From positions 50,160,001 to 50,224,000 of the forward strand of contig OZ076409.1 in the NCBI GenBank assembly GCA_964187785.1: a stretch of 64,000 bases of DNA. Direction: 5' to 3'. The translations under genes were made by a program, and so were the position numbers. The number at the start of each line of letters is the position of its first letter. The first letter of the stretch is position 1. The notes below the pieces were generated by a model that was given only the letters and a program-made list of their open reading frames with translations, was not told where the DNA came from and did not search any database. Below, piece by piece: positions 9,517 to 64,000 of the stretch. Origin of the DNA: Amphiscolops sp. MND2022. Taxonomy: Eukaryota.

Positions 9517-9675
9517 ACGCAACTTTGGCACAACTGTTGACAAGGAAATAGACAATCTCAAGAATGGTAAAATTGCTTTCGTCAATAACTTGAACACTAC
9601 AGCTAGTTGTGTAAACAAGTAACTACGTCTAAAACCGACGTGATCGCATATTCAAGACAACATTCCACCACCGGG

Positions 9676-10006
9676 TGTTCGACGACCGTACCGTGAACGA
9701 AGATGTTGCGGCATTGGTATCCGTTTGTCTATTTCTCTCCTCGTTTTGTTCTAGCAACTTTTCCATCATAGCTTTCAGCATAGACATTTCTGATTGTAAG
9801 TGGCTAAACCTTTCGTCATTTGCTCTCTGAGAATCTATCTCAGGATACGATGAACTTTGTCCCGACTGGGCTTGTTCATTTGTATTTTCATTGTCATTTT
9901 CCATGTTAACGATTCCTTCACCGTAAGTAAGATTCGTTGAATCTACTGAATTAGTGCAAGTTAGTGTTTTCCCGTTTCTCAATGTTATTTGGGAATTAAA
10001 ACTCAA
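9676..10006 (-). CDS. LTR-encoded ORF of element 1, probable Gag N-terminus
   Basis: ITLRNGKT...RFSHLQSEMSMLKAMMEKLLEQNEE...VRSSN, open to the LTR end. Confidence 0.55.
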
Positions 10007-11333
10007 ATGATGAAGAAGAGATGACTATTGCGGATAAGAGTTGAATTGTTGTAAAAGCTGGAGTAAGATACGTATAAAGGATGAGTAATACAAGTACTTG
10101 TACAATGTGGCGTTAGTTATCTTGTGTGTCTCCAAGGTAGCCTTCCACCAGTTCGATGGTAAGACTCAATTCTTACCATCGTTTCGTTCTTATTGGTTAG
10201 TTAGCAAGGTGCTAATTAGCACTTGGTCACTAGACCGGTTGTACCGCATGTCGCTGGAGGGCTACCCAACTGAAATTGCGCGCTAAATCTATTTGAATCA
10301 AATACTATGAATATCTAATGCATTCGAATTAGTTAACTTGTAGTAAGCACAATCTGAGTCACGGCAAGTGTCGAAATCACATCAAAATGGGGTACAATCT
10401 AACGGGGGGTCAAATAAATCAATTTTAAAGAAGTGTGATGTAAAAACGATGAATCAATAGCACTAAGTTAACTGGAGATACGGGATTCAGTAGTTTTGTC
10501 GTTTTGGCATCGTTTTCACTAGTTGATTCTGTTTATGTGGCTGTGGATGCAGGAATGATGAATGAGCTTCGCTCTAGTGTTAAAGCGATCAACTAGATGT
10601 GAAAACGATGAAATGAGTTGTGGGGAGAGCACTGTATATAGTTCTGGAGTACTTACATCGCTTTATCATCGTTATAGGTGAATTTTGATTATAGATGAGA
10701 AAACGATGAAAGATTTCCATCGTTTTTCCATCGTTCTCGATTTCAGCACTATTCTCAGGTTTTAGAAGCGTGAGTGATGCACAAATGATGAAACATATGG
10801 CAACAAGTATTCAATCAAGTAGTTTTCTCTCGTTTTCTGGCGTTCTGGTCACGGTTAAACGATGTAATATGGATGAAACTTGTTAGATTGAGTTGAATTA
10901 TTAGTTCTAGCACCAATAACATCGTTATTTCATCGTTTCGTGTATTTCAAAGAGAGGAGGCTTGTCGCGCTAGTTTCCTCTGAGGCGGGAGTTCCCTAGC
11001 GAGTGTCAATCTCGTCTATTCGTTATGGCGGCCCAGTTTGACCGAGTAACTACTTTCTTTTCTCGTGACAAGCCATTAAATGTAGAATAGCATCATTTGC
11101 TTATTAGCACGATCATGAATTGTGGACAAACGGAACTAGAATGCTCAGTATTAAATAAATAAATAGCTCAAATCTCACTGGGGAAATAGTGGGTTAGGTA
11201 CAAGTAACGTAGGGTTGCTCATAACCATAGGTCTTATTACATGACATCATATTGCCCATATCTAAGTACATAAGACATATTATTTACATTACAGATTTGT
11301 AGTAGATTATATTTCCATCATGCTGGCATGACA
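9676..11333 (-). repeat. 3' LTR of element 1 (1658 bp)
   Basis: Minus strand TGTCATG...CGAACA, abuts the TSD; its first 500 bp repeat at 23482-23981. Confidence 0.85.
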
Positions 11334-11349: not shown

Positions 11350-12170
11350 TTTGGAAGGGGAGCGCAGGGGCCAAATGTGCAGAGGATGGTTGTCGCAGCG
11401 TAGGCTTTGACATGTTCCTTCGTTGGTCTCAGGGGAATTGCCTTCGTTGGTTCTCAATTCTTTGGTGCCTTCGTTGGTTTTGTCTCATTTGTATCTTCTC
11501 TGGGAAGGAGACATCTTTCATCGGGTTAATATCGGCTGTGAACTTGGTTATATCGGTTAAATTGTGGACGCGTCAGTTCTAGTTCTTGGCCCGTCGAATG
11601 TCCGCGGATCGGCTTGTATGGCTGTCAGAAGTGATTGTAGAGTCTCGTTTGATATCTGGTTTGAATGGCAAATGGTCAGGTCTTGTAAGTGGGTTGACTG
11701 GAGAGTGCATTGAGCATTTGACTGAGAAGCGGATGAACGTGCGGTTGGAATTTCAGAACAAGCGTGAATGAATGTGACGTAATCATATGCGCGGGAGTGT
11801 TGTAGGTAGGCCAACTGTGTGCGAGGAGGAAATGTTCAGTTGTTTTAATAGTCATTGAGTAAATAAAGTAGCCACAATTTCGAGTGCGTCTTTCCGCTGT
11901 GTGTGTAAATCATTCAAATTGCTAACGACGCTGGCAGCTGCATCTAACACTTTGATAAGATTTGCACGGAAATTTTAAGTAAATTTGTCGTTTTGCAAAC
12001 AGTAATTTCCTCTGCTAGTTGGCGGAAAAAAGCAATAATGTTGAATCTGTATTGAAGATTTTTGGCAGATTTTCCATCTTTTGATCTCGGAATTGTTAGA
12101 TGTAGTCGAAACGTTGTTGTTTCTTTTAGTATATGAGCTATTAATCGGGTCCATATCACGGGTGATCAGT
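11350..12170 (-). pseudogene. Decayed extra sense ORF between cargo gene and 3' LTR
   Basis: Frame MDPINSSYTKR...ANLIKVLDAASVVSNLNDLHTQRKDALEIVATLF...QMRQNQRRHQRIENQRRQ with several stops; same position as 54225-54953. Confidence 0.35.
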
Positions 12171-12418
12171 CCATTCCATGTTGTCGATTATTTTGATTGT
12201 CATATCTTCAAACTAATTCCACCGTTATTGTCTGTCTTCATTCGTGTCATGTTTTTTCAGATTGCAATCGTTTTGTCGTTGTCTCATCGTCACGATGTCG
12301 GATAATCGAGAGTTACTTGAGATGAATGTATTGAGTTAGTCATCGAACTTTCATCGTTATTCTATGTTTTGGGGACGTGTATTTTGATGTTACGTTTCAT
12401 TTAGCTGCTGAAGAGGGA

Positions 12419-15400
12419 ATGACGCCGTCTCTGTCTGCAAGTCCAAGAGTTTATGCAGAACTCACTAGTGTAGGACCGATTGCTCCGGCCCAAACTCCAA
12501 TCCCGCAGTATCCGCTTGTGCCAATGTAACCCCAATGTAAGGTGTTTACCGTCTGTTGATCAATTCCGTCGGTTATTCATCGCCAATCAATCACAATGTT
12601 ATTTCAGTATACACGCCTTGGCAACAGTCTTTGGGTTCTCTGTCGTTGGGGTGGTACGATGGTTATCTGCGCAATACAGTGAGAGAAGAACTTGCTAGTG
12701 CCAGTAAGTCAACTTTCATGTGTGATAGCGCTTTCAGCTGTCTCTGCTGTTGCATTCGTGTTGGTCGAATAGGTTTCATCGGTTGCCCATCGTGAATGTG
12801 GTGTCGATGTAGGGACGATGGATCTTGTTATTTTTAGTCCCGCGTGATGTGCAATCCGTTGGAAGACCTGCATTTCGACATTTTGTGTCTGTTGCCTGTG
12901 GACCGGAAGCGTCGGAGTCGTCACGTGATGTAGCGACACAGACGCGTCGCGAGTTTGTGGTGGAGTCGCCTTCCAGGGAGTCAGAGGACATCGAGGCTGT
13001 CTCTGAAGATGAGCAGCGGGAGGCAGATGCGATGATCCTTGATGATGAAGACATTGCCGAGTCATCTGGAAATGTTGCCGCTGTGGGTGAGGCTGGTACT
13101 TCCATCGTCAGTTCATCTGTACAGCCTGGTCCAGTTGTTGTCAGGCGGTCAGTTCGGGCAGGTAAACTAAACAACTTCATCGATCACGTGACTTGCAAGT
13201 TATGTGCTTTTTCGGAATACGTAGTGGACGTGTGTAGTTTTATTTTCAAGTGTGTTTTGAGGTCATTTCTCTATACTGTCTTTTCAGTTGTTTTAATTTT
13301 TCACTCGGTAGAAGTTTTCTTTTAGCTAATTTAACTAAAACGTCGTTTTTACATCAGTGGGGCTATTTTGGATGAATTCCATTTAGTCCTATGTTCAGTT
13401 AAGTAGTTTCATCGTTTGGCCATCTGGTTTTGTTTTAGTCGCTTTGAACAGCATTAGAGCGACCTGGTTTCAACACCCGTATGCCGGAATCTCGCTTGGC
13501 TTCGCTCGTGAGCATCGTTCATCTGATGCTTATGTGCGGTGTCTTTTATGTCGTCGCGATTTGAAGGTTGGCAGTCGCGGGATTTCAACCTATTTGGAAC
13601 ATTGTCGCGGCGTGATCCATCACAAGTTAGACTGTCTGGTGCGTCTGCGACGTGGATTGTTGCTGAGACGTCCAACTGGTGCTGTGATGGGCGTAGTAGA
13701 AGCGGCGCAGATGGTTGAAGAGTTACGTGGGCTGTCAGTGCCTGACGTGGAAGTGTGTCCTGCTTTGTCAGTGCAGGATGTGTTCCGGATTGAGTCAGGA
13801 GGCGGAAGTATCTGGAGTTCAACCGTGCAGGAAGTGCCCGATACAGAACGCAGTCTGAGGATGTTCCTGTGTGTCGTCGTGGACGCGCTTTATTGAGGTG
13901 GTGACGTGACGGGTCTCACCGATTTGTGGGATTCCCTGTCGACGACGGACGTGTCGTACGGAAGTCTTTTCGGTGGCGGATGCCGGAAGGAAGACGTAGT
14001 GGTAATTATATGTTTCATGAATTACCTGTATACATGTTATTACATGTTTGGAATTTCCTAATGGCCTTCATGCTGTGTCTATAGACGGGTAAATGGTCTA
14101 GGTTCTGAGGGGGGGTTTGTGTGCTATTGTCATGAGGCTGATTGGTGTTTTGGAATATGTTTTAACTTTTCCAGGCGCTTCTGATCTTCGGAGTGTGGCC
14201 TTATGTCGTCCGCACACTCGCAGCTTCGCTATGTGGTGAAAATCCTGTTGGACTATACCTGGAGTTGGATAGGAGTGTCGTTCGGTGCTCTGTCAGTGTG
14301 GCTGAGGCAGATGCAGTGCAGGGCGTGGTCTTGTTTGAGGTCGTAGCTACTGGCGACTGGGAGAGGCGAGTGTCTGAGTGGCTCGCGGACTACTGGAGTT
14401 GCGTCGGAGATGACTTTGTCCCAGTGGGGATCAGTTGTGGATGTCTCTCAACTGTTGGAGGGTTGTTAGAAGGAGATGGCGGCCGACGCGGGTTGCAGCT
14501 GAATCCGTTACAATTGAATGCCGTATTGCAGATTATCACAACCGCTGGATTGTCTGTGTTCGTCGGGCAGGACGTTCATGTGGTGATGAACTTTCTTCTG
14601 GGGAAGCTTCGCGACCGTTTGACGGATCCTGTGTTACGCAGTTGTCCTGCTTTGCTGCATGTTAGTGAGTTCATATGTTTGGTTTTGGTTCGGCAAGACT
14701 AATGGAGTTAGGAAGACGTGGTGGGCGTCATGGAAACTTGAAGTGAGGTGTGTAAGTAATGTGTTTTTTATTTCAGTGTGTCGTAGCCGGTGAAATCTCT
14801 AATTGGGAGATTGTCTCTGTCCTGGAGGATTTACATCATTCGTGGGACAGTCTTGTGGCGTTGATACAGCGTCTTGACCAGTTGGGAGGAAGTGCAGATC
14901 CCAATCGGATGGAGTTATTAATCTTGCAGGAATCAGGGCTAGCTTTGAAATTGCATGCTATGGGAGTGGTATACTTTATTGGTTAGATTTTGCTTTTGTT
15001 ACAATGTAATTACGTTTATACAGGTTTTATCGGTTATACGTCGTGTTATTTGAGGGTTCGGGGAAACTGTCTATCGTTATCATCGGAAAAATGTCAGGTG
15101 GCGTGGAAATACCACTTCGAGTCATTTGTTAGGTCTGTACTAGGTGAGGACGTTGTTATACAGTGTACATCGGATTAGCATCTGGTCATTGACGTGTTGT
15201 GTTCTAATCGTTTTGTTTTAGTACTCAAGAACATGAAACAGACTTTCAGTGGAAGTATGCATCGCGGATTGTATACGGTCAATGAATTGCTGAGTACCGT
15301 CCGAGAACTTTGTTTAATGGTTACTCAACCTGCGACAGTACCGGAATCATTTGAGATGCACCGCTGGGCCGGTTTTCAAGTAGCTGATCTACGGTTAAGT

Positions 15401-16180
15401 GCAGCGAGAGAGTCGCAGTTGTATCGGACTTTCGAAGCTCATCGCGCCCGTTATGCTTGTGGGGGGGAGTATCGAGCGGCAGTTACCGTTGTTGAAGAGT
15501 TCCTTATTACCATTGCTATGAACTTGCTACGGATGCCACAGATTTCTGATCAAGTCAATATGGCCCTAGCATGTTGGTGTCCTGATGTGCTGATGCGCGG
15601 AAGTGTCAATGAAATGCAGGAAACCATTGGCTACTTTCTTGAGGCTCTAGAGGGAAATGGAGTTATAGCTGAAGAAGAAAGGATTGCGATGTCTGACTCT
15701 TATGTACAATTTGTCAGAATAATTCCGAGATGACCATACGAGTGAGTATGCATCAGATCTCCATGATAGGGAGCTGTTGCAGTATGGTACTAACGATGCT
15801 AATTTGCGGCGGATGATGCAGCTGTCGTTGTGTTTGAGCGGCAGTGTAATTCAAAGTGTTCAGATGGTCAATATTTGCTTGCCAACTTTATCTTCATAGT
15901 CCCGAGAAGTATTTTCCTGACAATTCTCAGTTGGTGTGAGGCCCGAAATGTGCGGGGTTTACAGAGTATTCCCGATGGCTTAGTGATGGAAAGTAGCGAA
16001 GTGATTGGAAGAGCGGAAGATTTACGAAACGTCACGCTAGGCAGTTTGTGGGATGAAATCGGCAGAGAATCTCCTGATGGTTATCGTGGTGCAGTTTCGG
16101 AGCGGTTGGGTTTCACGTCGGATGGTGGAAGGGCTGCGAGTCCGGAAATTGGTGGAGCGCATCGATTTCGAAAACTATTT
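12419..16180 (+). pseudogene. Antisense spliced cargo gene: acidic N-terminus, BED/TTF-like zinc finger, degenerate hAT-transposase-like body
   Basis: Phase-matched GT-AG exons 12419-12536, 12608-12703, 12838-13161, 13439-14001, 14175-14660, 14777-14968, then probably 15024-15127 and 15222 onward; CLLCRRDLKVGSRGISTYLEHCRGVIHH; EFLITIAMNLLRMPQISDQVNMALACWCPDVL; a few stops and frameshifts. Confidence 0.8.
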
Positions 16181-16406
16181 ATTTCACACTTATTTATTCG
16201 TTGTTTTAACTTTGATTGAGTATGTACACGATTATTAGAGAGTGCGAAGCACTAACATTTGTGTTGGGATTTGGTTATAGTTGTTTGTTTTTATTTTTTT
16301 TCTGTACTTTGTGCGAAAGTTATTAGAGCTTTTCTGAATTGAACATTTAGTTAGAGTTTTCATGCGCTATAAGATAGAAGTTAGTTGGTAGGCGAGCCGA
16401 TGAGGG

Positions 16407-17705
16407 TGATGAGAGGGCGATGGAACATTTCCATCGTTCTTTCATCTGTAATTGCCTTTGTGTGTTATTTTAGTATGAAACCTTTGGATGATAAGTAAAC
16501 GATGAAACATTCTCATCGTTTTTCCATCGCGCGGCTCAGTTGCATGTATTCACAGTGTAGGTTACGAGACTTAGGTAGTTTTCATGTTAGGTTGTTACCA
16601 GTGATTAAGTGATGGGGGAACTCCATCTCTTATACATCGTGACTGTTGTTGTACTCGCGTGCGTGAAAGGTACATGTATTTTGAATTGCATGAGTAGCCT
16701 GAGTTTCATGTTAATTTTTCGGAACGATGTGTACGCGATGAAGTATTTTCATCGTGTAGGCATCGATACAGAGGCTTGAGTGGGTTTTGGCGTTGAAATA
16801 TGTAAAGGTGAGTGGAACGGTGGAGTATATCCATCATTCCATCATCGTTGACTGAGAATTGGTTCATTTGAGGTGGAAATTCTAGAAGCAATGAGTAACC
16901 GATGAAATATTTCCATCGGATTTCCTTCAGGGGGATTTTCGTGCGTTCTTCAGGAGTTGTGTGATACGGTGGAGGTTTTCCATCATTTTGTCATCGTGGC
17001 GATGAGTTTGTTAAGGTTGTTCGACAAACTGTGCGACGATGCGGGTAACGATGAAACATTTTCATCGTTTTTCCATCGTCGACTGATAACTAGTTAATTT
17101 TGCGTTGAGGAGTGGAAGCGATGAACTAACAATGAAAGATTTCCATCGTTTTTTCATCGGCGTGTGTCTGTTGGTGTGTTAGCCTTTGAATAGCAGTTGT
17201 ATCTTTTCGGTGTCCTCAATCAGGGCGGTAATGAACCGAATGTCAACCCAATGCAAAGCCTATGGTCTGTTGACGATTGAGGATTATTCTCTCTTGACTG
17301 AAGGTAATTGTAGAGAGAAGGGAGATGTAGAAGTGATGGAGAAACTCCATCTCTTTTACATCGTGCTGTTACAAGTTTTCAGTCAATTACGGTGGTTTGT
17401 CTAATTGCCACTTAGCTGTTGGTAATCAAGTTTTCCTCAACTGAGATTCGCTAATCAGATGTTGACTCGAGGCAAAGCCTACGAATTATCAACAGACAGG
17501 TCATGGAAACTCAGATTGTTTTGTGGCATGGTCAGAGAGAAGGTTGTGATGAGAAAACGATGGATGTTAACCATCGTTAAGCTCACTTAAATTTTATGTG
17601 TTTCTGGAAGCGATGTGGTGCCGATGGAAATGTTCCATCGGTTTTACATCGTTTCTGGTAATTTCACTGTTTCTTCACGATGGGGTGTTATTTAACCATC
17701 GTTTT
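16407..17705. promoter_or_regulatory. Array of ~13 spaced palindromic sites CGATG-N6-CGATG-N9-CATCG-N6-CATCG
   Basis: Exact geometry at 16725-16765 and 17611-17651, near-exact at 17119-17159; spacer sequences vary while pentamers and spacing are kept. Confidence 0.75.
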
Positions 17706-17744
17706 GATGTGAGGTTGTTGTTTACATGTTGTTTCTATCGTTTT

Positions 17745-19590
17745 CTACTGCAGAGTAGTGTTTGTTTTGCGTAGGGCGCTTCGAGCAGTTGAGATTTCAT
17801 GAATTAGGAAGTCTGAGTAGCGTTTCGGCTGAGGGTTTTCGCGTAGACTATATTTGCTTTTATTTGTCCTCGTTGCTATCAGATTTGGCGTTTCATCATC
17901 GTTCACCTGTTGGGGTGTCTCGGTGTTGGCAGGTTTTGTTGATTGTTCTGGCTGTTTCGTTGTATCTTGAATGATTTCCTGTGGACTTATCTCATCATTT
18001 TCGTTGAATTGCACCTGTGGGGCGTTTCGGGGCAGGTCGTCTATGATTATTTCCGGTTGTGGTGTTAACGACAGTCGGTTCGGTAGTCGATTCAGTGGTC
18101 TGTCGTGTTTGATTGCCTGCCGATAATCTGGCGATTTTAATCGAATGACTCTTTCAACTGGTGTTTTTTTTCATCAGTTTCTGGTTCGTCCGAATTGGAG
18201 TTTAATTTTGTTTGTGTGGGAATGTGGGAATCGAAAATATCAGAATCTTCCGTTTGGTCCGTGTCAGCGTATACTGGTTGGTTACTGATGTCCACGTCTT
18301 CTACAGGAAACTCCGGTTTGAAGATTTTCAGTCGTATCCGGTGAACGCATTGTGTTTTGAATGTTCCTACCTTTCGTATGATGTAGTTACTGTCGGACAG
18401 CACTTTCATCACTTTGAACGGACCTTTCCAGTGGAAGGTCTTGAACTCTTCTTTGCAACCCTGAGAGTCGTATTTGGGGTCAAGTAGGAAAACAAGATCG
18501 TTCACTTTGAGCGGTTGTGCTTTGGCTTTTCTGTCATAGTAAGCCTTGTACTTGTGGTATGCAGCTACTATGTTGTCTGTGTTGTTTCGGTAGATTTCGT
18601 TCATGCGGTTTAGGATCTGATTGATGTCTCCAAACTTGGTGTCGACTCGTCTTTCAGAGTTAGAGTATTTTAGGTCCAAAGCGTTGTATGGAGTGCGTCC
18701 GTGAAAGATTTCAGTTGGTGAACATTTCAGAGAAGTGTGGTACGTTGTGTTATGGGCCATGTTTGCTTTGTCGACATAGCGGTCCCATTGTGGTCTGTCT
18801 ACGTTTACATGTATTTTTAGGATCTTTTTTAGTTTTGCATGACTTCTCTCAACCATGCCTATGGTTTGTGCATGTTTTACAGTTGCATGGGAGATTTCAA
18901 TGCCAATGGCTTTGGTCAGTTGTTGGAATAGTTCGGCGGTGAACACGGACCCTTTGTCAGTCAGGATATGCGTTGGGACGTACGCGTGTTTGGCGAATAC
19001 CGACAGTAGAGCATTAACTACGGATGGTGTATCGGGTTTTCGTAGCGGTACAGCAAACAAATAACGCGAGAATACGTCTATTGCGGTCAGGATATGTGTG
19101 TATCCGTTTGATGCAGGCAGTGGTCCGACTATGTCAACTTCCATCAGATCAGTAGGGCCGTTACACGGGTCGTATATTTTCTGTTACGGTGGGCGGATCT
19201 TTCATTCGTTCGTCAATTTCGATCGCATGCAAGTTTCACAGCTTTCGAGTACTTTTTGTGTTTTCTCAGCAAGACTTGGAGAGTAGTAGCGTTTGCGTAG
19301 TTCATGTAACATCTTTTTAGAACCGAGGTGTCCCTGTACAGGGTTACTGTGTAAGGACCTGAATATTTCTAACATCACTTGATCAGGTACGACGATTTGT
19401 TTATGGGACTCAAGGCCAGTAAGGTGATAAAAGATACGGTACAGAACTCCGTTTACATTTTCAAGGCGTTTTCTGTTTTTGTAAAGTTTTTGGAAAAACG
19501 TTGACATCAAGTTCACAGGGTGGGTCAAAGTTGTTTCGTCAGACAAAATTTTAAACATAAGTTGAATGTCACTATTCGTTTTTTGGGTTA
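17745..19590 (-). pseudogene. Element 1 integrase (HHCC, DDE core, C-terminal tail), frameshifted
   Basis: HSNPVQGHLG..CETC; EVDIVGPLP; LTDKGSVF; GMVERSH; WKGPFKV; tail KYSLRENPQP. Confidence 0.93.
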
Positions 19591-19593
19591 AAA

Positions 19594-21360
19594 TTAGATC
19601 GACTCCCCTGGGGGGCTAACCTCCTTCGTTACCGGGTGTAGTAACGATGTTTTTACGATGAATCTAGTGTACTCTGGTAGGTGAGCGTCAGTCATTAGCT
19701 GGTAGATCTGAGGGGAGCTTGTGTGATCATTCTCAGAGGCCAGTGGTGTGGAGTGTACGTAGTTCATCGTTTTGTCATCGTCACAGGCTGTCGTCGCTAC
19801 GTCAACTGTTCTCATCGGTTTGCCATCGTCGATCGTCACTGTCTCAGAGTTGATCACTTTCATCGGTTTAGCATCGTGTGACCTCTTCTGTCTCAGTGAT
19901 TCGCTAGGAGGGAAGTATTCTGGTTCGTCTTCCTCCTGTTTTGGTGTCTTCGATGCGATTTCGATTTCTATGTGGTGTACTGGAATGGAATCAGTTAATT
20001 TTAGATGGACACGTTCTTCAGGTCGAATTTCCAACCTGGAAAAGTAATCCGCTGCGGGATTCTCTACACCTGGTACATGTGCTAAAATAAAATTAAACTG
20101 AAGCGTCTGGTCGCAAAAATTCCAAAGTGACGGTGGTATGTGTTTGGCCTGAAAGAAACGGGTGAGTGCTTTATTATCTGTCATTACAATTATAGGTTTC
20201 TTTCCCACAGAATGTGGCCGAACTCGTCGAACGCGAAGTGCATGGCTAAAAACTCTTTAGCGTACATTGTTAATGACATCTGTCCACCCTGAAATTTCTT
20301 AGAGCCAAAGGCAACTGGTGCGTACATCTTCAAGCTACCCGATTGTGTTTCAGAGTAGTCTTCTATTAAAAAAACATAACCTGCTGCATGTTCACTCGCG
20401 TCACACATGATTACTAATTGTTTATCCGGAAGGAGAAGTTTCAATGACAGCTTAGTAGCCTTGAGTAAACTTTCGTTAATGTCAAAAATTACATCTTTGT
20501 GACGTTGTTCTAATTTAAAGGTAGTGTCTTTTTTGATTAATTCGTGAAGAACTGCTGTTTTGTCTGCCAACCGGGGAATGTAGGACCTGTAAAAGTTGAC
20601 AAATCCTAAGTACCGTTGGAGAGCTTTAACTGAAGTGGGAGGTTTGAGTTTCTTCAAATAATCAGTTATTCGTTTTTCGATGGGTGCTATTCCAGTGCTA
20701 GAAATTGATTTGCCAAGGTATTCAATTTGTTGTTGACCGAATTCACATTTATTCATGCTGAGTTTTAAACCAGCTTTGGACAACTGCTGAAAAACAATTT
20801 CTAAATTTTCAATCAATTCATCAGGCGTATTTGCTGCGATGCCTATGTCGTCAACATACTGGGCACAGCGGTCCGCTTTGACCAAGGAGTCCAAATACTT
20901 GCGGACTACGCTGGTGAAGGATGAAAGGGAACGATTAAGACCTTGAGCTAGTCTAAGAAAAGCAAAGGTACGGGATCCAAAGTTAAAAGACAACAGTTGG
21001 ATTGACTGCTCATCGGCCATTGGAATGCAGTGGTAGGCCTGGGAACAATCAAGTTTACAGAAATATTTTTTCCCGGCCATGTGTTGAGCAGCGTCTGAAA
21101 CTGTTGTGACTGGGTGGTTGTGTTCTCCGTAATCGTTCTTGATCAGGTGGTTGATTCTCCGCAAGTCAACTAAAATCCTTAGTTTACCACTCGGTTTACG
21201 CTGTACAAATATCGGTGACGAGTATTTGCTGTAAGGGAGAGTAGTTATAATCCCGTACTCCTGCATTGACGCTAATTCTACAAGCAAGTCATCTTTTAGG
21301 TTAGTAGGGGTAGGGAGACTTTGGGAGTACACCGGTTCTTCATGCTGGGGTGTTAATTTT
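19594..21360 (-). pseudogene. Element 1 reverse transcriptase and RNase H
   Basis: SPIFVQRKPSGKLRILVDLR; KLDCSQAY; AQYVDDIGI; MCDASEHAAG; AKEFLA; MTDNKAL; ADYFSR; frameshift near 20200. Confidence 0.95.
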
Positions 21361-21362
21361 AC

Positions 21363-22901
21363 TTAAAAATCAGTGTTCATGCCGATGTCTAAACGATGTC
21401 TAGCAAAAATGGAGTTGTACTTTACCAGCAACTCCTCTACCTGAGCTTGTTGAGACGGAGAAAGAAGTGATTCCTCCCACTTGAAGTTCTGCAGGAACTT
21501 GACTCGTTCTTCATGGGAGCGGGTAGGATCGAGCTTCTCCAGTTCTCTGAGGGCCAGAATCTCATCGAAAATGCGTCTTTCGATCTTGTTGAGTTTATCT
21601 GGTTCACTGCACGTCTCTGGTGTCGGGTACCATTTTGTAGACTTCATCTCTGGGTTCACGAAGAGTTGATTGATCACTGCTGCTGCATCATCTGGGTGAT
21701 CGGTGATCAACTTCAGGTGTTCGACAGGCATCGGTGTGATGTTGGCTGCTTGATGGGGCGTTGGTATTCTGAAGTGTGCCAGGTTGGTGTTGGCTTCAAG
21801 TGTGTACACGTGCTCATTGGGGTTGGTGACCTGAATCATCGTTTTTCCATCGTCTAGGTCAACCACTGCTGGAGACACCAAGAGACACGTTTTGCGCATG
21901 AAAGCTGGAGTCCCTTCTACCGTGCCAGTTGTACGTGATATGTCCGCGTCACTGTGGACCTCAATCAGTACTTGATGGTGGGGAGGGATGGTAGTTCTGT
22001 TGCTGGAATACAAATTAATTAACCCAGTTTTGAACTTTTTATTCGTCTGTTGTCTCACTTGCATTGACATCATATGGTTAGGAAAGTGAACTAGATGATT
22101 TATGATGTCAAGGCTGACAGAATACTTTTCAAAAAATGACATTCCGATCAGGATCGTTCCCATTGTTGGGAGGACCAAAAAGACTTCTTCGAAGACTTTT
22201 CCAGCTATAAAGAAGCGTAAAAGGACTTGTTTTTGAATGGGGACTAAGTTGCCGTTAGCTATCTGAACTTTAAAGTTAGGGGGTGGTAATTCGTCTAGTA
22301 CTGCTTCGGGATGAGCAGCGGTGATTTTGCGTAATTCTGCTTCCGAAAGTGCGCTTTGCACTGCTCCTGTGTCTAAAAGACCTTGGTTTTCGTAGCTGTT
22401 AAACTGGAGGGGAACAAACAACATCTTATCCTTTTTATTTATATGCAATGTGGGACTAAGTACGTGAAATTGATTATTGGTTGCATGTTTTTTAGTTTTG
22501 GTACTACTATTTTTGTCGTTTGCATGTGTTTTACTACTAAGCCGTTTTGTCGATTTGTCATCGGTTGAGAGTCGGTCCGTCTGTTGTAGATGTGAGTACA
22601 TCTCTTTGGCATCGTGCGCAGGCCTCAATGCGTCGTTATGCCAGTTCATCGTTTGTTCATCGAGTGAGTTTTCCAATGGAGTGAATCTGTTGGTGGTTTT
22701 CATCGCCTTCATCGGTTGTTTATCGGGTTTCCGGTATCTTCGCAGATAGACTTCGTCTGCTTTGCTGGAATCACCAGAGGGCTGCCAAGACCTCTGATGA
22801 CGATTGCGTTGAGTTTGTTGAGTCGAGTGAGATTTGGAGTCAGAGTGTGGGTGCGCACTTTGATTGTTCGCGGAGTGAAATTGTGGCTTTACTGAAAATC
22901 C
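21363..22901 (-). pseudogene. Element 1 pol N-terminus: aspartic protease and a dUTPase-like beta region
   Basis: LLDTGAVQS, ILIGMSF; frame open from the gag overlap at 22901 to a premature stop at 21363. Confidence 0.9.
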
Positions 22902-23490
22902 TGTTCTCCTTCTGAGGATGGATCTTCATCGTTGTCTTGTATTTCCATTTGGTTCATGGGGCGCTGTTGTTGTTTTAATTCTCGTCGTCGCTCTTTGTTC
23001 TCTTGTTCATCTGTTCGTTGGTATGGTAGTTGTCCGTAGGGTGTGCTGGTTTGCTTTGGGATTCTTTTTCTGCAGTCCCAGGTTGAGTGGCCAGTATACC
23101 CGCAAATCTGGCATACCAGTTTTGGGTTGTATTTTGGCTTATCTTCATCTTGCCGCTTGGTAGGTTGTATGGCGTCTGGTTTGTTAATGCCATTAGCTTC
23201 ATCTCTTTGGCGTCCTCTGCATTCTTGTTTCGTGTGGCCTTGTTTACCACAGTAGAAGCATTTTCCATCGAATCGTTTAGTGTCTAATTTGGGCTGAGAT
23301 TGGTCGGAGCGTGTGAATTCTCGTTTGGATTTGTTATCAGACATCTGGTTAAATGGCTGATATGTCGCTGCAGGTTGTTGTAGGACGTTCTGATATTGGT
23401 ATTTTCTGAGTAAGTAGGTTTTGATTTCTTCGGGGCTGCTGTCTTCTTTGTTCGCCATTGTCAGCTCTTGTTGGATTTCGATTTCTGGCG
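22889..23490 (-). CDS. Element 1 Gag C-terminus with two CCHC knuckles (N-terminus deleted)
   Basis: CFYCGKQGHTKQEC and CQICGYTGHSTWDC. Confidence 0.9.
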
Positions 23491-23981
23491 TTCTGGTCAC
23501 GGTTAAACGATGTAATATGGATGAAACTTGTTAGATTGAGTTGAATTATTAGTTCTAGCACCAATAACATCGTTATTTCATCGTTTCGTGTATTTCAAAG
23601 AGAGGAGGCTTGTCGCGCTAGTTTCCTCTGAGGCGGGAGTTCCCTAGCGAGTGTCAATCTCGTCTATTCGTTATGGCGGTCCAGTTTGACCGAGTAACTA
23701 CTTTCTTTTCTCGTGACAAGCCATTAAATGTAGAATAGCATCATTTGCTTATTAGCACGGTCATGAATTGCGGACAAACGGAACTAGAATGCTCAGTATT
23801 AAATAAATAAATAGCTCAAATCTCACTGGGGAAATAGTGGGTTAGGTACAAGTAACGTAGGGTTGCTCACAACCATAGGTCTTATTATATGACATCATAT
23901 TGCCCATATCTAAAAACATAAGACATATTATTTACATTACAGATATTTAGTAGATTATATTTCCATCATGCTGGCATGACG
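23482..23981 (-). repeat. Truncated 5' LTR of element 1
   Basis: Matches 10834-11333, then joins directly into mid-gag. Confidence 0.9.
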
Positions 23982-24353
23982 CCGGGACCTCGTATCATTT
24001 TTGAGGTAATGAAAAATACATTGCAAGTAGGCTTTGAGAATGCATAAGAAGTCTTGACAGGTAGAAGACGAGTAACAAAAAAACCCTTACATTGAAGTTG
24101 AACTGAACTTGGGTTCATCTTCATGTGTCAACTTCCAAGATGTTGACTGCTATTTGGTTCGAATATCAAACATTTTTACCAGGTATATTTTATTGCCAAT
24201 TTTATATATGGCTCCTAGTTGCAATATATGTTCAATTTACTTCTAGATAAGGAACAAGGGGACAAATGCAGACATAAACGATTTTCATGAACAATGAATA
24301 GCTGCGATTTTCATTAGAGCAATTGAATGTAAAGGAACGAAGGAAAAACTTAC

Positions 24354-56430: not shown

Positions 56431-59400
56431 ATGGATTCATATTCAGGAGGGTTCCCGCTTGATTTTGTTTCTCTCTGTCGTATGAACAGCCAATTGATGA
56501 AACTCATACACAACCAGCTGACATTTCTACTGTAGTGCAAATCTTGCCAGACGTTCACAACACCGATCATTCCCAAACAATCAGCAGAAAAGGGCTAGAG
56601 CAACCTCCAGGACTGCGTCCCTTGTCCAATCTGTCCTCCAACAGTGCAAATACAGAAGGAAGTCGCTCATCTTTTGCAGATCAGACATTACGTACATTGG
56701 CTGCTTTAGACCCCAGCTTAGACATCACCTTCTTGTTAGCGCCAAGCCAGTCTTCACAACACGGCGGGATCGAACTAGCCCTTGGCAAGGCCTCAGAGTC
56801 AGAGGCACTAACACTTGGCCAGCCTGAAGTCCAATACGTAAGTACGGAACAGCAGGGTAACTCCAGGCAAAATGAGCTCCTTCGACTGGAGAGAAGAGCA
56901 CAAGAAGAATTACTTTGAGACTGATGCAAGTGAAGTGGAGGATTTGTACGACAGCGCTGGCGCCGAAGGGCTGGCTGAGGGGCCTACCTCCAGTATCGTG
57001 AAGTCTGAGCTTTTTTCAGCTCCAGAAGAAGATCGAGAGACGGACGATCAGAATATCAGCAAGCCTGAAGGATCTCATCTACATAGCGAGGTCAAGCTCC
57101 CTGTCCAGCTTTCTGCCAATGGTCGGATCATGCTACGAAAGTACTTCACTGAGACAGCTCCTATTGAGCTCCCTAGAGGACATACCTTGGTTGCATCCAG
57201 CGAACCCCAGATTCACGCAGTGCTTAAGACCATTTCGGATGAGACAGTAAAATCTTCTTTACATGCCATGCGTTCTCTAGACCTGCAGGCGGTTTATGGG
57301 GAAAGGGTCAGACCGCCGGAAAATTCAGAAAAGCCTTGATCCGAGGAATCACTGCAGCTAGGGGTAAGTCGGCGAGCTCTGAAGTGGAATCGGAGAGTGA
57401 TAGCTACTCTACTGCTGGCTACACTAGCGGAGCATTCGCTACAGACGAGGAAAGAGGAGTAGCTTCTTTCAGTCAGGGAGCCGAGTCCGATACAAACAAT
57501 TCGACTGGAGGGACGCAAACTAAAGAGAGGGGGAACGTTCGTAATTCTGGGCACGCCACAGTCCCTAGCCCAGGTTACATACGAGCATTTGGGCAAGCTC
57601 GACAAGATAACTGGGACCACGGTCCACGCCGTTAGGGGGAAGGACGGACACATACTCTCCGCGTATGAGCTGGAAAAGGAGAAGCCCCTATTTGAGTCTG
57701 CTCGTCTCGTAGATATCGGCCCCCGTTTCCCATTCTATGATGAGTACATGGCGAGTGCAGGAGGACTGACTAACCCTGATTGGAAGAATCGTGCCTTATT
57801 TTGGTGACATCGTCATACTGATAGGACTTTGGGCCATCGTCATACTGAAAGGTGGGCAATTTCACCAATCATCAAGCCAATTGGATTACCTCGTGAAGAT
57901 CCAAATTTGCCGATATAGCTTGATCTCTGATCCAGCTCGGAATCAGTTGCTTGTGATAGCTCGACTCTTTTCTTTTCTTTCTACTGCACCCCTAGTTATG
58001 TGCATGTCAGGATGTACTTCTGACGTCCTCCAAACAGTCGAGCAGTTGAAGAAGGGGATCGAGTACCCTTTTCGATACCAGGTCCTTTCGATGCATAAAC
58101 TGATGCATAAACGAGAAGGGAGTGTATTCGGACGGATAGACCTTCACATACAACTCAATACCTACTGGCTTACTTAGCTAATAGCCTTGACGAACCCTGG
58201 ATGGCCAAAACTCATGAAGTCTCCGCAGAAAGATTCGTTTCCAGTGTTAGGGATAGGTTACATCTTGTACACCAGTTCCATAGCATTGTTCTTTCTAGGC
58301 CATCGTCAGTTGTAACTCGCGACTTCGGTCTATCCCCACCGAATGCTCGGAGATCATCACAAATTTGCAGCCCTCCTTGGACCACATTACTAGGATTGCG
58401 CCTAGTTACGAGATGCTAGGGATCAAAAACAAGGTTGTGGTTTGTTCCATTGACTAATCCAATCGTTGACTTGTACTTTATAGTCTCATGGTCTGAACAC
58501 TATTGGCAAGTCTTGTTTTCTTTTAGCCTCGGAGTCTGGAATGGCAGATCGTCAGTGATGACTTCTTCCCAATCAAGCTGGTTTTTTATGGGCGAGTCGT
58601 GTACGATTGTAAGTATCTCTTCTTTCATTATTTACGTTTGGAGTAAGCCGGTTTTCGCAATGTTCCAACTCTTCTAAAGGCTCGTAGGTCAAGATATCTT
58701 ATTGTCGAATCTTTGTTGTTTAGATAATGTCTGACTCGAAAGGAGCCTAGTGGGTCATCGAGATTCTGGATTCTTCACTTTTGGCCAGCGAAATACTTTC
58801 GTCCGAAAACTCTGCTACCGATCTCTTCTTCTGAAGCACATTCCCAAAGAGACGGATTGGACACAATTGCCCGTGCTTCGTACTGCCGAGCTTCGGCAGT
58901 TGTCATCCAGAGATTTTCTCACCAGACTGAGGTTAAAATTGGACCTTGATGCAGCAGCGAGGACCTAAAGTGAAGCGAGGCAACAGCGACCGAGATGGCC
59001 CAATTCCTTATTTGGCTGAATAAAAACACCAAGGAGAAGTTCATTGCCAAGGCAAGAGGTTACATCGTTTTCTTGCTTGAGATCTTCCTAAACCACATTA
59101 GCCTGAATGCCAACATCGTGAGGGGGATGGCTTGGTTCGATCCCAACATACTTTTGTGTATTCCATCGGAGCAAGCCACACTTTGGTTTGCAGCCCTATA
59201 TCAGAGTTTCAGTCTCCGAGGCTGGTTGGAGAGTTCTCCTGAGGACGACTGCAGTGACGAATGTCTGGAGTTTGCAGGGCATTTTCGTCAGACCTACACT
59301 TCCTCGAAGCATTCGCCAGATGAGTTTCTCGACATGGTGGATTTATTGTCTGGAATGTCTGAGCTCCGTAATTGGCCCCATCTCTTTCGATTGTTTCGGC

Positions 59401-59887
59401 TGAATTGAATGTGTCTCGTCTCGCTGAGAACACCCCACTGCTTCCTCCCATCCGATTCTACGATGTCGATTCACACATGCCAAAGTGTAAGCTGGCAGAT
59501 GTTCTGTTACCAGCACAATCTTTTCTGGCCCGGGTTCCCGAATCCATTCCTATTTGCACGAAGGATGAGTCGTTGGCCAAATTCCGCGAATTAGAAGATC
59601 AAATCAATACAGGCAACGTAGCAGGCAATCCTTGGAGTCATGTCAACATATTTGGAAAAGCAGGCTTCTATACAATTCTCTGCCAAGTGCATAAGTCATT
59701 CACACAGAAGCCCAAGTCAGCGTTTTCCAGTCGTTCCTTCTCTGGTTCCAATTCGCCCAGTACCAGTGCACGACGTGAAGGATCCCCCGGAAAAGGAAAA
59801 CGGAAAGTTGCCTTTGAATCAAGAGAGCCTTCTAAGGAGGGTAGTGTCCCACAAAAGCCTGAACAGTCTACTGCATCTAAATCTTAA
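56431..59887 (+). pseudogene. Antisense cargo gene of element 3, degenerate hAT-transposase-like
   Basis: Acidic/Ser-rich N-terminus; VMCMSGC; FIAKARGYIVFLLEIFLNHISLNANIVRGMAWFDPNILL...DCSDECLEF...WPHLFRLFRL; GT-AG intron 58609-58723; internal deletions. Confidence 0.72.
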
Positions 59888-60142: not shown

Positions 60143-63100
60143 CTAGTATCTGTATTCGTCAGTAAAGTTGGGGTTGGGGTTAGGTCGAAGAACATATTTC
60201 CCTCCTCTAGGGCTCGAATTTTCCTCAGGTTTTTCATTTTCCGACATTGCGGGCGCGGTAAAATCTGCGCCTCCATTTGAAGCAATTCCCGTGTTTTCTA
60301 AACCATTAGTGACGTCCTTTTTATTTTCTGTCCCACTAGGCAATTCATTCAGTGGGGACGTCTCGTCTCGGCTGCTGGCCGGTCTCGGCCTTATTTCATC
60401 TTCGGTGACGTCACTTTCATTCCTTTCTTCGCTGCTGCGTTCATCTTCATTCGTGTTGGAGCGGTCGTATTCGGTGACCTAATTGTCCACTCCGCCGGTG
60501 GCGGCGTCGCTTGGCAGACGCGTGGCCGTGTCCGATCAATTATCTTTTCCGGTTCCAAAAAACTCACAGTCGAAGTGTTCTTCCCATGAAATAGTATACA
60601 AGTCGTCTTGCGGTATTACTATCTCCTCATCAGACTGTAGTTTTTCACCAGAGTAATTATCCTGTAAAGGCGTATTAGATACCATTTTTTTCAGCCTAAT
60701 CCTTTGTAATATTTGCGTTTTATTGGTGTTTACCCGACGCACAATATAAATGTGATTTGACAAGACTTTTTGAATAACAAAAGGGCCAATCCAGTGATAG
60801 TGTCTGAATGGAATTTCCAATGCTTGTAGGTCAGCTTTAGGTTGTAGGATGAAACAATACTCCCCCTCCTTGAGCAGAGCAGCTTTGGCCTTCCGGTCAT
60901 GATAGTCCTTGTGTTTCAAGTACGACTGCATGATGTTTTTCTTTGTTTGATCGATGAGGATTTGTGTTCTCTGTTGTACTTCTTCCGCAAATTCTGTAGT
61001 TGGCAAAAAGTTTTTATCAGGATTATTTTCTAATCTTTGGTCAAGGACATTGTGGGGAATGCGTCCATGAGATACTATGCTTGGTTCACATCCAATACTT
61101 GAGTGGTATGTAGTATAATAATTGAGTACAGCTAATGGCAGGTATCTGTGCCATTGGCGTCGATATTCCCTTGAGGCCATTTTCAAATTTGTTTTGAGAA
61201 AGGCGTGCGTCCTTTCCAATTTGCCAATTGTTCGCGGGTGTTTTGTGGTAGAGCATTTGAGTGTTATACCCAAGATTTGTGTAATTTCCGCTACAATCGT
61301 TGAGGTAAATGCGGACCCTTTGTCCGTGATGAGGGTTGTTGGCAGGTATGAATGCTTTGTCATGATATCAATTAGCACCTTGGCTACATTTGTGTCTGTT
61401 GCCTCAATTAGCGGGTATGCAAAAAAAGTAGCTTGAAAAAACATCAATCGCCGTTATCATCGTCTGGTATCCCCCACTGGTAGATAAATTTGATATAACA
61501 TCATTTTGCATGACATCTTCTGGACCATTCCAGCAAGTTAAGTAATTCCGGTGTTAATATTATATTATTTGGGACACGTTTATCCTTGGCACATATTTGC
61601 AACCTTCTACCCATTTTTGACGTGTTTTGCTAGCCCCTGTAGCTTTATTTTTTGCAAAATTCCTGCAGCATTTTTGATATACCAGGGTGTTTGTGTGCCG
61701 TGCCATGTAGGGCAAGTAACAATTCTATCACCAAGTGTTTAGGAAGTAATATTTGATGATATTGGACTTGACCACTTTCATCATAATATTGTCTCGTGAT
61801 TACTTCGTCCTTGAGGACTTTGCGTTCGAAGTTGTTCAAGTAGTGCTTGTACCGTATGTCCTGTTGGAGAATTTCCTCAGAACACTCTTCATTCTGGATT
61901 TTCGCTTTAAGTTGGAGTAATCTTGGGTTTCTAGCCTGCTCCATCAGTATCTGATTAGTTCGTCGTAACTTTTTGGTGAAATTGGTTATTTCATCCACAT
62001 TATTTTCGGATATTGCATCAATTTGTATTATAGTCTCGTCGACTTTATGCCCTTCTTTGGACAATCGGTTGCGCTCCCAAGTTTGTTCTTCTGTCTCATC
62101 TCCTTCTTCAGTGAAGAATACTTGTTCTTCCTCGGACTCACCGGCCGATTGAACATTAACTTCAATAGGTCTGTATTCAACGTCCTCTCATATTTTCAGG
62201 ATGAATTTCTCATTTGGATCCATTTTCATACGAGACAAGTAGTCCGCCGCTGTGTTGTTTTTCCCTGCAGTGTGAGCTATGATAAACTTGAACTGAATCA
62301 CATAGCCACATGCATTCCAGAGTGGCGGTGGTATAACTTTTGTCTGGAAGAACCGCGTAACTGATTTGTTATCTGTGAGGATGATTATCGGTTTCGGAGA
62401 TCCCCATCTTGAGTTGTCATCTTGAGTTGTGAAGGAGATAAGTCTTTGATCCATTAGCTATGGGAGCATTGGACTTTTTGGCGGAAGTAAACTTTTGGTT
62501 TGGGTCGTCTTCGGTTAGAATGGCGTAACCGGCTGCCGTAAAGCTGGCATCTGACATCAGGACCAGTTGTTTGTTCGGCAATGGTTGCTTCAAGGCTAGT
62601 TGGCTACACCTGTCGAGATCCCGTTAGTTTCGTTGAATTGTTGTACTAATTCCGTGGTCACTAGGAAATTATCGTCCTTTTTAAGGAGTTGAAAAAACGG
62701 TACTTGTTTTTCGGATAAACTTGGGCTATAATTTCTGAAGTAATTGAGAAAACCAAGATAACGTTACAAGGCCTTCTTGGACTTCGGGAATTTTGTCTTT
62801 TCCAAGAAAATAGTAATTCTTTTTTGAGGCTTAACACCTTCTGGGGTGATGGTTCGTCCCAAAAAATCAATTTCGGTAGCGCCGAAGTGGCACTTGTGCA
62901 TCGTTAGTTTCAATCCAGCTTCTCTGATTCTTTCGAAGGTCGCCCTCAAGTTTTTAATAAGTTGGTCGGCGTCGCTGACTGCAATGCTGATTTCGTCGAC
63001 GTATTGGGCGCATTGATCCGCTTTGATGATTCGGTCAAGGTATTCCCTCATGAAACTGGAAAAGGCCGATAAGTCTCTAATAAGTCCCTGAGCCAATCGT

Positions 63101-64000
63101 CTATAGGCGAACGTCCTGCTTGCAAAGTTAAATGCTAGCATTTCTTTGGACCTCTGGTCCGCCATCCGAAGACAGTGATAGGCCTGGGAACAGTCTAGAT
63201 AGCAGAAGAGTTTCTTCCCTGCCATGTGTTGTGCGGCATCTGTCAGAGTACTGACTGGGTGGTTATTATTAATATAATCATCTGAGATGAAATTATTAGG
63301 TTTCCTCAGGTCGGTCAGTAGTCTGAGTTTGCCATTGGGTGTTTTCTGCGCGAATATGGGGCTGGCGTGTTTAAAAAATGGCAGGGTTGTAATAATGCCA
63401 TATTTGTGGAGTGATGCCAGCTCAACCAATATGTCCTCTTCTAAGTTCACTGGTGCTGGTAAACTTTGGCTGTAGGCTGGGGAATCATCCTTAGGGTTAA
63501 TTTGACTGTAAACTCTTCATTTATGCCAATGTTGAATCTGTGGCGTGCGAATATATCATGGAACTCTACCAAAAGTGATTCAATCCTTTTGCTCTCATGC
63601 TGTTGTAGCATCGAGTCCTTGCAGTCAAAGTTGCTGAAGATCTTGCGGCGAGATTCTTCGTCATCATTCGGGTTCAGTTTTTCCGCTTCTTGCAAGTTGC
63701 GTAATTCTCTGAGTATTCATTGCTGTATGGGTGTACGAGACGTTTCGTCTCCTGGTATTTCGGGTGTTGGGAACCAGTATTGTTCGTATTGGTCATTGTT
63801 CCGATTCGCTTTCAGGAGGCTGCTAATGTTTTGGATAGCATCCTCTTCATTCTCTTTTATTAAATGCCATGTAGACACTGGGTCTATTGGTCTGACATGT
63901 TTCATTTGTTCGAGAGTCAACACTGAGAAGTTTGCTATATGCAATCATTTTTTGAGCTTGTAAGGTTGATCAGTGAAATTGTTGACGCGTATTCCTATGG
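60143..64000 (-). pseudogene. Element 3 pol (RT, RNase H, integrase), disrupted
   Basis: AQYVDE (YVDD mutated); MSDASFTAAG; LTDNKSV; HGTAHKHPG; ITDKGSAF; GKLERTH; tail KYVLRPNPNP. Confidence 0.93.

Follow-up and report, generated by a model that had tools for sequence, protein, structure and literature searches.

The Gypsy retrotransposon in a 64,000-nucleotide stretch of the genome of Amphiscolops sp. MND2022 (contig OZ076409.1, positions 50,160,001 to 50,224,000; hereafter the window) raises the question of why an intron-containing gene should be placed between its integrase and 3' LTR on the strand opposite pol, from where it was acquired and what it might do for the element. The original prediction had read it as a captured, catalytically dead hAT transposase with a zinc finger. 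The carrier, spanning 9676–23981 and flanked at both ends by an identical 5-bp TSD, conformed to the Ty3/Gypsy type in its domain order (gag, then PR-RT-RH-IN) and in the presence of two LTRs and a TSD within the 4–6 bp range, the 5' LTR being truncated in the window copy. Its minus-strand gag/pol gave Pfam matches to rve, RVT_1, RT_RNaseH, gag-asp_proteas and zf-CCHC. A 503-bp LTR was rejected, as the full LTR is 1.66 kb long. An open frame within the 3' LTR may, when read from a 5' LTR, represent the start of gag.

Table 1. Features of the two Gypsy elements and of the antisense gene, in positions of the window.
Feature	Position	Strand	Remarks
Left TSD	9671..9675		5 bp
3' LTR	9676..11333	-	~1.66 kb; contains CGATG/CATCG motifs
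Exon 1	12261..12334	+	ATG at 12295, coding part 12295-12334; conserved acceptor and donor (donor 28/29, ATG 28/29 copies)
Exon 2	12405..12536	+	Proline-rich; premature stop in window copy; dN/dS 0.27
Exon 3	12608..12703	+	Short, strongly conserved; dN/dS 0.05
Exon 4	12838..13161	+	Acidic low-complexity region; dN/dS 0.40
Exon 5	13439..14001	+	BED-type zinc finger, then helices; premature stop in window copy; dN/dS 0.07
Exon 6	14175..14660	+	Probable RNase H-like core; catalytic aspartates not conserved; dN/dS 0.18
Exon 7	14777..14981	+	Helical; no significant hAT match; dN/dS 0.15
Exon 8	15222..16171	+	Helical C-terminal block; two frameshifts in window copy; dN/dS 0.21
Spacer	16172..17745		Non-coding; densest CGATG array
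gag (3' part), protease, RT, RNase H, integrase	17746..23477	-	Stops and frameshifts
5' LTR, truncated	23478..23981	-	98% identity to 3' LTR
Right TSD	23982..23986		5 bp
Antisense gene, second Gypsy element	57600..59887	+	Degraded lineage-3 copy; start approximate
pol, second Gypsy element	60536..63516	-	RT 59% identical to first

The antisense gene consists of eight coding exons with a predicted product of approximately 930 aa. Six exons had been proposed originally, missing the first exon and one more, and the proposed intron phases 1,1,1,0,0 correspond to the middle five of the seven introns, the full series being 1,1,1,1,0,0,1. The exon with the acidic region was present, as were the CxxC..H.....H finger and a helical block at the C-terminus, all three parts of the original description. 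The window copy is broken: exons 2 and 5 each carry a stop, exon 8 has two indels of one base each, and a stop has been lost. The eight exons were all open in 2 of 30 copies (926 and 931 aa). The ATG at 12419 was discarded as a start, since it falls within exon 2, downstream of an acceptor that 29/29 copies retain, and a supposed splice site near 15740/15900 was explained by the frameshifts of the window copy instead.

Splice sites were preserved in 26–30 of 27–30 copies (acceptors in 29/29, 28/29, 27/28, 29/30, 28/30, 29/29 and 27/27; donors in 29/29, 26/29, 28/29, 30/30, 28/29 and 28/30), compared with 41% for other intronic AG and 53% for other intronic GT in comparisons with distant copies. 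Between subfamilies (16 near versus 7 far copies) dN/dS of exons 2–8, seven of the eight, ranged from 0.05 to 0.40 (Table 1), against 0.82–12 in shifted plus-strand frames; the best reverse-strand frame gave 0.13–0.55 and equals exon 4 at 0.40. Exon 8 had 129 matches across the genome, and in 21 of 24 family copies, counted as distinct non-self gag-pol matches read by eye (20 reached via exon 8 matches and one via a separate search), the gene adjoined gag-pol on the opposite strand, an antisense placement between pol and 3' LTR like that of Retand-type ORFs; no adjacent gene was seen at the other three gag-pol copies. The antisense gene is an integral part of these elements, with conserved splice sites and frames under purifying selection and with its BED-type finger kept.

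Two further lineages of the gene, which like the motif array described below were absent from the original prediction, were detected at approximately 10–25% identity with thousands of candidate matches. Three intron positions with their phases are common to all three lineages, and HHalign connected the lineages at probabilities of 99.3% over 687 columns, 95.5% over 557 and 78.2% over 296; judged from these alignments, the three are homologous. The gene lay opposite pol in 3/3 fetched lineage-2 loci and in the lineage-3 copy of the window. The RT of the other lineages' carriers was 76–77% and 59% identical to that of the first Gypsy element in the window, and across lineages the accessory gene diverged much faster than RT, the sequence of the finger also varying. 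A metagenome scan with a lineage-3 exon found no relatives among 127 pattern matches, all 82 inspected matches (35 of them read) from 1.84 billion proteins were exon-like pieces of the antisense-gene family or repeat protein, and searches for longer proteins returned nothing beyond members of this family.

The origin of the gene was approached by profile comparison. The C, C, H, H of the finger were invariant in 9/9 sequences of the three lineages, and HHalign matched this N-terminal finger to hAT BED at E=0.00093. Pfam zf-BED remained under the cut-off (E=0.026, in 2/33), the Atlas feature matching the finger at 0.92 comprised zf-C2H2_12 in 76% and zf-BED in 12% of its members, and a PDB profile search placed the ZBED2 BED first of three matches (E=0.26), nothing in the PDB profile searches being significant. 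RNase H strands 1–4 matched the hAT profile at E=0.0033 over 90 columns, improving from E=0.042 with a shallower profile; the score of 35.5 was not reached by any of 62 block shuffles (mean 15.8, maximum 24.1; block shuffling is a lenient null) nor by the reversed sequence (17.4). Both matches fall in hAT order and spacing, their HHalign probabilities being low (10% and 22%), and the finger-to-end length of approximately 730–750 aa compares with 597–697 aa in host hAT frames. Exon 6 alone reached only E=0.42 in HHalign against hAT, a global profile alignment did not rise above its own null, and when one or two lineages were compared with host hAT frames by hmmsearch and HHalign, only the finger matched.

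No exon of any lineage passed a Pfam cut-off, Dimer_Tnp_hAT (PF05699) included, and HHalign found no significant or in-register hAT match for exons 7 and 8 or for the C-terminal part of exon 8. A match of exon 7 near the TRW motif (E=0.43) was probably off-register and was left uncounted; the position of this exon would fit the start of the hAT insertion domain. The AlphaFold model of exon 6 had a predicted order of helix, three strands, helix, strand, helix (pLDDT 42.4) and that of exon 8 was mainly helical (pLDDT 49.5); Foldseek with these low-confidence models gave no match at E<=0.001. The best VIA Z-scores were 5.9 and 5.8 for exon 8 and exon 6, respectively, with no transposase listed for exon 6; among the exon 8 matches, Hermes 8edg ranked 13th (Z 5.0, rmsd 4.6, 89 residues aligned), with the same score as unrelated helical bundles. 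Atlas had no usable match for exon 8. Profile matches for the proposed resemblance to hAT transposases covered the BED finger and RNase H strands 1–4, in the expected order; neither Pfam and HHalign nor the fold searches detected the C-terminal dimerisation region. A hAT ancestry is probable, with support of moderate strength from these profile matches.

The predicted loss of catalysis agreed with the alignments: no acidic residue was invariant across the three lineages, leaving no DDE triad, the position of the first D varied between D, E and K within lineage 1, and CxxH and SERxFS, present in host hAT frames, were absent from the cross-lineage alignments. Nor were TIRs with an 8-bp TSD found around the gene, in line with the original observation: among perfect 10-bp inverted pairs between the flanks four were found, the best with 3/8 flank bases matching. 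The gene had also been described as captured rather than nested. It is an integral gene under selection and not a recent nested insertion, but the contrast itself is probably false, because an intron-bearing antisense gene would most simply be a nested DNA insertion that was later domesticated. The conserved introns point to capture as DNA.

The non-coding parts of lineage 1 carry an array of short motifs. CGATG occurred 32 times in the spacer against 3.1 expected, 11 times in introns against 1.5 and 14 times in the LTR against 2.8; outside the element the count was 60, with 65.5 expected. Of 28 same-strand pairs no more than 40 bp apart, 21 were spaced at exactly 11 bp, versus 0/2 outside the element; the spacer combined such direct pairs with inverted pairs at a 9-nt gap, and 11-bp pairs were also present between domains of the gag-pol region. 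In comparisons with distant copies CGATG was preserved in 178/265 cases versus 238/1437 for control CG 5-mers. The CGATG array of lineage 1 in LTR, introns and spacer is selectively conserved, which is a new observation. Short motifs that are specific to the family and enriched in non-coding DNA, of the kind known from VANC and TnpA, were found in lineage 1 only: four spacers of lineages 2 and 3, the latter barely sampled, contained 0–2 CGATG motifs, and lineage 2 had a weaker enrichment of ACATG. One lineage-1 locus (L034) had few motifs and was not counted against the array because of the AT-rich, foreign-looking sequence in its spacer.

The reading that we favour, with somewhat less than even confidence, is that an old, dead hAT-type transposase was domesticated and kept by a Gypsy clade as an accessory gene for a putative regulator that binds its own element. 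An intron-bearing DNA transposon would have inserted antisense between pol and 3' LTR of an ancestral element and would then have lost its ends and catalytic residues, while the introns persist since they lie in reverse orientation in the genomic RNA and are not removed from it by splicing. The protein, made from its own antisense transcript, would bind short repeated sites in its own element via the BED finger, the CGATG array of LTR, introns and spacer being the candidate site in lineage 1, and by analogy to VANC and TnpA it may regulate the transcription of its own family in trans, most likely as an activator or anti-silencer. A bolder form is conceivable but more doubtful: that a Gypsy clade with thousands of copies in one genome domesticated a hAT transposase together with its introns and uses it, spliced and antisense, as a factor for transcription or against silencing, the finger of each lineage co-evolving with its own site array (here CGATG at one-helical-turn spacing), so that a class I element would be running a class II-derived regulator.

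Other explanations were weighed against the same data. A selected, probably hAT-derived gene might have nothing to do with the array, which would represent RNA hairpins or sites of a host factor or Gag, the protein acting on host chromatin or proteins. We consider this rather unlikely, although lineages 2 and 3 keep the gene without the array, and in the four-part motif units, which are not independent, the arms were complementary in 65/138 cases versus 52.6 with permuted partners, so that an RNA hairpin also fits; on the strand of the gene, itself G/T-rich, there were 28 G-T pairs compared with 5 A-C pairs. However, 14 of the 21 11-bp pairs had no opposite motif at the 9-nt gap, an 11-bp interval that stays constant while the bases inside it vary is a usual mark of sites on double-stranded DNA, and the finger sequence differs between lineages, too. 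It is unlikely that a protein of the same dead-hAT origin functions in integration or particle biology, binding LTR and internal motifs on the cDNA and tethering or steering integrase. Integration of ordinary Gypsy elements needs no gene of this kind, the antisense gene diverges much faster than RT, and motif density peaks in the internal spacer and introns, remote from the ends; selection over the whole transposase-length body beyond the finger, the motif in the LTR and the oligomerisation of hAT transposases on DNA ends, given in the accessible text of PMC10368747, are in its favor.

A captured host gene or another protein with a BED-like finger, in which the RNase H match would reflect chance amphipathic patterns, is improbable: the absence of any weighty Pfam, PDB-sequence or fold match, the unmatched C-terminal half and the leniency of block shuffling would agree with it, but two matches in hAT order and spacing, the second improving with profile depth, a finger-to-end length near that of host hAT frames and the restriction of all inspected protein matches to the own family or repeat protein would not. 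The idea of a nested DNA-transposon remnant passively copied along with the retroelement could draw on the rarity of fully open copies and on the three gag-pol copies at which no adjacent gene was seen, yet it is highly improbable and was refuted by the low dN/dS, with which the conserved splice sites, the retention over three deeply diverged lineages and the failure to find TIR/TSD agree; decay after insertion hits pol as well.

The favoured reading, a domesticated transposase regulating its own element, has partial parallels. Plant Retand/Tat antisense ORFs (TRP28, PF04195, Transposase_28), Grande, RIRE2 and fungal Boty are comparable: in these Gypsy elements, too, an antisense ORF is conserved between pol and 3' LTR, often near repeats, and a DNA-binding regulatory role was proposed for it (PMC11963269; PMC7264820, accessible parts). 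The Retand type has a TRP28 domain, whereas Pfam searches found no TRP28 match in the Amphiscolops gene, and the main text of the Retand paper makes no use of the word "intron", in contrast to the seven introns and BED/RNase H match here. VANC of Arabidopsis VANDAL is likewise an accessory protein encoded by its element, whose non-coding parts hold short motifs specific to the family (PMC5735166, accessible part), and TnpA of En/Spm is transposase-derived according to the available portion of a preprint, which mentions neither "LTR" nor "retrotransposon" (10.64898/2026.08.24.746577). Both belong to self-regulating DNA transposons, whereas the probable transposase derivative in Amphiscolops belongs to a retroelement, and the motif is a candidate site known from sequence.

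In hAT transposases (Hermes), ZBED and DAYSLEEPER an RNase H-like region comes after the BED finger, an arrangement that is also probable for the antisense gene, which unlike hAT/Hermes lacks conserved DDE, CxxH, SERxFS, TIR and 8-bp TSD. Its pattern may resemble that of the ZNF862-like hAT subfamily (PANTHER PTHR37162). BED domains bind short interspersed repeats, some of them quasi-palindromic (PMC10368747, accessible part). ZBED and DAYSLEEPER were domesticated by hosts and the antisense gene probably by another mobile element. Accessory genes of invertebrate Gypsy-like elements also include the bdelloid ORF3s, whose description (PMC5408684) mentions neither "intron" nor "transposase", and the extra ORFs of planarian Burro, for which the accessible text (PMC6431247) lists apoptosis, Smc-type and env-like domains and uses neither "hAT" nor "antisense". 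A literature search limited largely to openly accessible articles listed no LTR element with an antisense gene that is both spliced and derived from hAT.

The accessible part of PMC7264820 states that known antisense ORFs of LTR retrotransposons have no similarity to other TEs and that their origin and function are unknown; here a probable donor can be traced. If the favoured reading is true, transposase domestication would extend from hosts to other mobile elements. The traceable probable donor, the conserved introns, the three deep lineages and the exactly spaced candidate site make self-regulation by an accessory gene directly testable. Such self-regulation may help to explain the abundance of the carrier elements in the 1.07-Gb genome.

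The antisense gene on the plus strand of the Gypsy element (the carrier) turned out to be far more common than originally known. A DNA search with 12300–16300 gave at least 44 matches with 40 of 149 candidates scored, and 30 loci at 75–100% identity. The spliced gene, predicted with six exons, proved real, and alignment of the genomic copies, with third-position variation in the exons, resolved eight coding exons separated by introns of phases 1,1,1,1,0,0,1. Splice acceptors and donors were retained in 26–30 of 27–30 copies, while the remaining AG and GT dinucleotides of the introns persisted in just 41 and 53% of comparisons with distant copies, respectively. The proposed dN/dS check, run on 16 near versus 7 far copies, indicated purifying selection on exons 2–8 (0.05–0.40, with 0.82–12 in shifted plus frames); the reverse-strand shadow frames reached down to 0.13–0.55, being equal to the coding frame at exon 4. 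The copy in the window contained two stops and two frameshifts, while 2 of the 30 copies were open throughout (926 and 931 aa). Four additional loci, with 53–57% identity in exon 8, matched exons 2 and 5–8 in order, and exons 3 and 4 were located in three of them. As read by eye, the gene adjoined 21 of the 24 distinct non-self gag-pol matches and was missing next to three. No TIR with an 8-bp TSD was found around it, in line with the original prediction. Single copies deviated: a tandem duplication at L034:3114–4627 took in exon 5 together with a portion of exon 6, and in the copy at L031:1339–1540 a fused stretch remained where exon 3 and the greater part of exon 4 seemed to be missing.

Apart from the carrier's gene (lineage 1), two remote lineages were recognized. 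The profile of exon 5, which encodes the BED-type finger, matched 82 proteins among 1.84 billion, and all ten looked up were unnamed ENA predictions. Lineage 2, reached from one distant exon-5 match, was represented by the best 150 scored of 3276 candidates in the 1.07 Gb genome and lineage 3 by the best 150 of 4977, candidates not being equivalent to copy number. The lineage-2 gene was antisense to Gypsy pol in all three fetched loci and had four introns around exons 5–8 at positions and phases identical to lineage 1. The two fetched lineage-3 copies, too short to include pol, retained three introns and the 486-nt exon 6, gained one intron in exon 7 and had none before the finger. In two lineage-3 copies outside the window the finger followed a long open acidic frame with no intron in between. 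The lineage profiles aligned over 687, 557 and 296 columns with 99.3, 95.5 and 78.2% probability, and the RT identity to the carrier was 76–77% for lineage 2 and 59% for the lineage-3 element.

On moderate profile evidence, the gene probably descends from a hAT transposase. The finger C, C, H and H were invariant in all nine sequences. In comparison with a hAT profile built from 13 host frames and 51 metagenome peptides, the finger gave a BED match (E=0.00093), followed, as in hAT, by a match to RNase H strands 1–4 over 90 columns (E=0.0033; E=0.042 with a shallower hAT profile), whose score of 35.5 exceeded all 62 block shuffles (maximum 24.1) and the reversed profile (17.4). Weak BED-type matches came from Atlas, Pfam and PDB, and the AlphaFold model of exon 6 (pLDDT 42) had the order helix, three strands, helix, strand, helix. 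Exons 7–8 had no match in the profile comparison. Exon 6 alone gave E=0.42, and fold searches with low-confidence models of exons 6 and 8 gave no clear match. An origin other than hAT, favored by the unmatched exons 7–8, by a global profile alignment not above the null and by the failure of every exon to attain the Pfam cut-off, is nevertheless quite unlikely considering the two matches in hAT order. The suspected catalytic loss was confirmed in alignments: none of the acidic residues was shared by all lineages without change, and both CxxH and SERxFS were missing, so that the protein is not an active DDE transposase. On visual inspection, sequences of lineages 2 and 3 presumably resemble the ZNF862-like hAT subfamily. 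Genome-wide, the open frames around many PF05699 matches were short, which suggests that there are hAT families with introns, among which the donor could be.

An array of CGATG/CATCG motifs had been overlooked in the original prediction. The non-coding spacer 16172–17745 contained 32 copies of the motif (3.1 expected), the introns 11 (1.5), the LTR 14 (2.8), gag-pol 27 (8.8) and the exons 11 (8.0), compared to 60 outside the carrier (65.5). Within the carrier, 21 of 28 same-strand pairs less than 40 bp apart were spaced exactly 11 bp with variable inner bases, versus none of two outside; inverted pairs preferred a 9-nt gap (178 cases, 34 related loci). In introns and spacer the motif was kept in 178 of 265 far-copy comparisons versus 238 of 1437 for control CG 5-mers. 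Because the spacing equals one turn, it suggests candidate sites for an oligomeric DNA-binding protein; one study describes Hermes BED domains binding short interspersed repeats, some quasi-palindromic (PMC10368747). The arms of four-part motif units, these not being independent of each other, were more complementary than permuted arms (65 of 138 versus 52.6), which makes RNA hairpins a possible alternative, although the facing motif was missing for 14 of 21 direct 11-bp pairs. Pairs with 11-bp spacing also lay inside gag-pol (19645–19872, 21383, 21837, 22647), one cluster being between RNase H and integrase. Spacers of lineage-2 loci L049–L051 were enriched in ACATG/CATGT (7–9 per kb vs 1.8 outside), possibly a lineage-2-specific motif.

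The best reading, tentatively held, is a putative DNA-binding regulator of its own element. Introns antisense to the genomic RNA are retained through retrotransposition. An ancient nested insertion would have brought in the gene at the DNA level, and an antisense promoter close to the 3' LTR would drive its expression; its protein might bind the CGATG array, with family-specific activation or anti-silencing as the possible outcome. A function unconnected to the motif, for which the lack of the array in the counted spacers of lineages 2 and 3 speaks, seems somewhat unlikely, a role in integration is unlikely, and passive cargo is hardly credible. Conserved antisense ORFs of unknown origin are described in fungal Boty and the plant elements Retand, Grande and RIRE2, sharing their position with the carrier's gene (PMC11963269; PMC7264820), as are element-encoded regulators with cognate motifs in DNA transposons (PMC5735166; 10.64898/2026.08.24.746577; PMC13547354) and extra ORFs in invertebrate LTR elements (PMC5408684; PMC6431247). 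No LTR element with a spliced antisense gene of hAT descent turned up in the literature searched, which lay outside Repbase, subscription journals and supplementary files.

The carrier frames had Gypsy domain order on the minus strand (Pfam rve, RVT_1, RT_RNaseH, gag-asp_proteas, zf-CCHC). All 39 non-self matches at the LTR end started at 9671–9696, and 9800–11333 was present twice, ~14.4 kb apart, in other copies; therefore, the LTR was delimited as tabulated, and the carrier 5' LTR is truncated. An identical 5-bp TSD abuts 9676 and 23981.

Coordinates of LTR and lineage-3 features in the window
Feature	Position	Strand	Identity	Remark
LTR (3')	9676–11333	-		ends set by other copies
Repeat pair	10830–11332 and 23478–23980		98%	part of LTR only
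Second, remoter Gypsy element	57600–63516			with lineage-3 gene
Lineage-3 gene copy	~57600–59887			antisense to second Gypsy pol

An open minus-strand frame inside the LTR (9629–10024), extending to the LTR end and resembling a retroelement gag N-terminus, may be the gag start in full-length copies, which would place the beginning of gag inside the 5' LTR. Directly upstream of the 3' LTR, 11334–11365 is rich in C on the strand of pol and in G on the opposite one, so a classical long polypurine tract is absent; the adjacent 200 bp were ~90% conserved in far copies. A strongly conserved non-coding block upstream of the antisense gene (11830–11990), with candidate donors, is possibly an antisense promoter or untranslated exons. 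The window also contained a BEL/Pao-type LTR element at 25395–31939, whose 946-bp LTRs are 96.8% identical and whose gag has DUF1759; an RT frame was not seen in it, and its segment 26392–26696 is a tandem array of 24-bp repeats. Further features were short minus-strand frames at 6923–7372 and 52900–53322 resembling gag N-termini of other retroelements.
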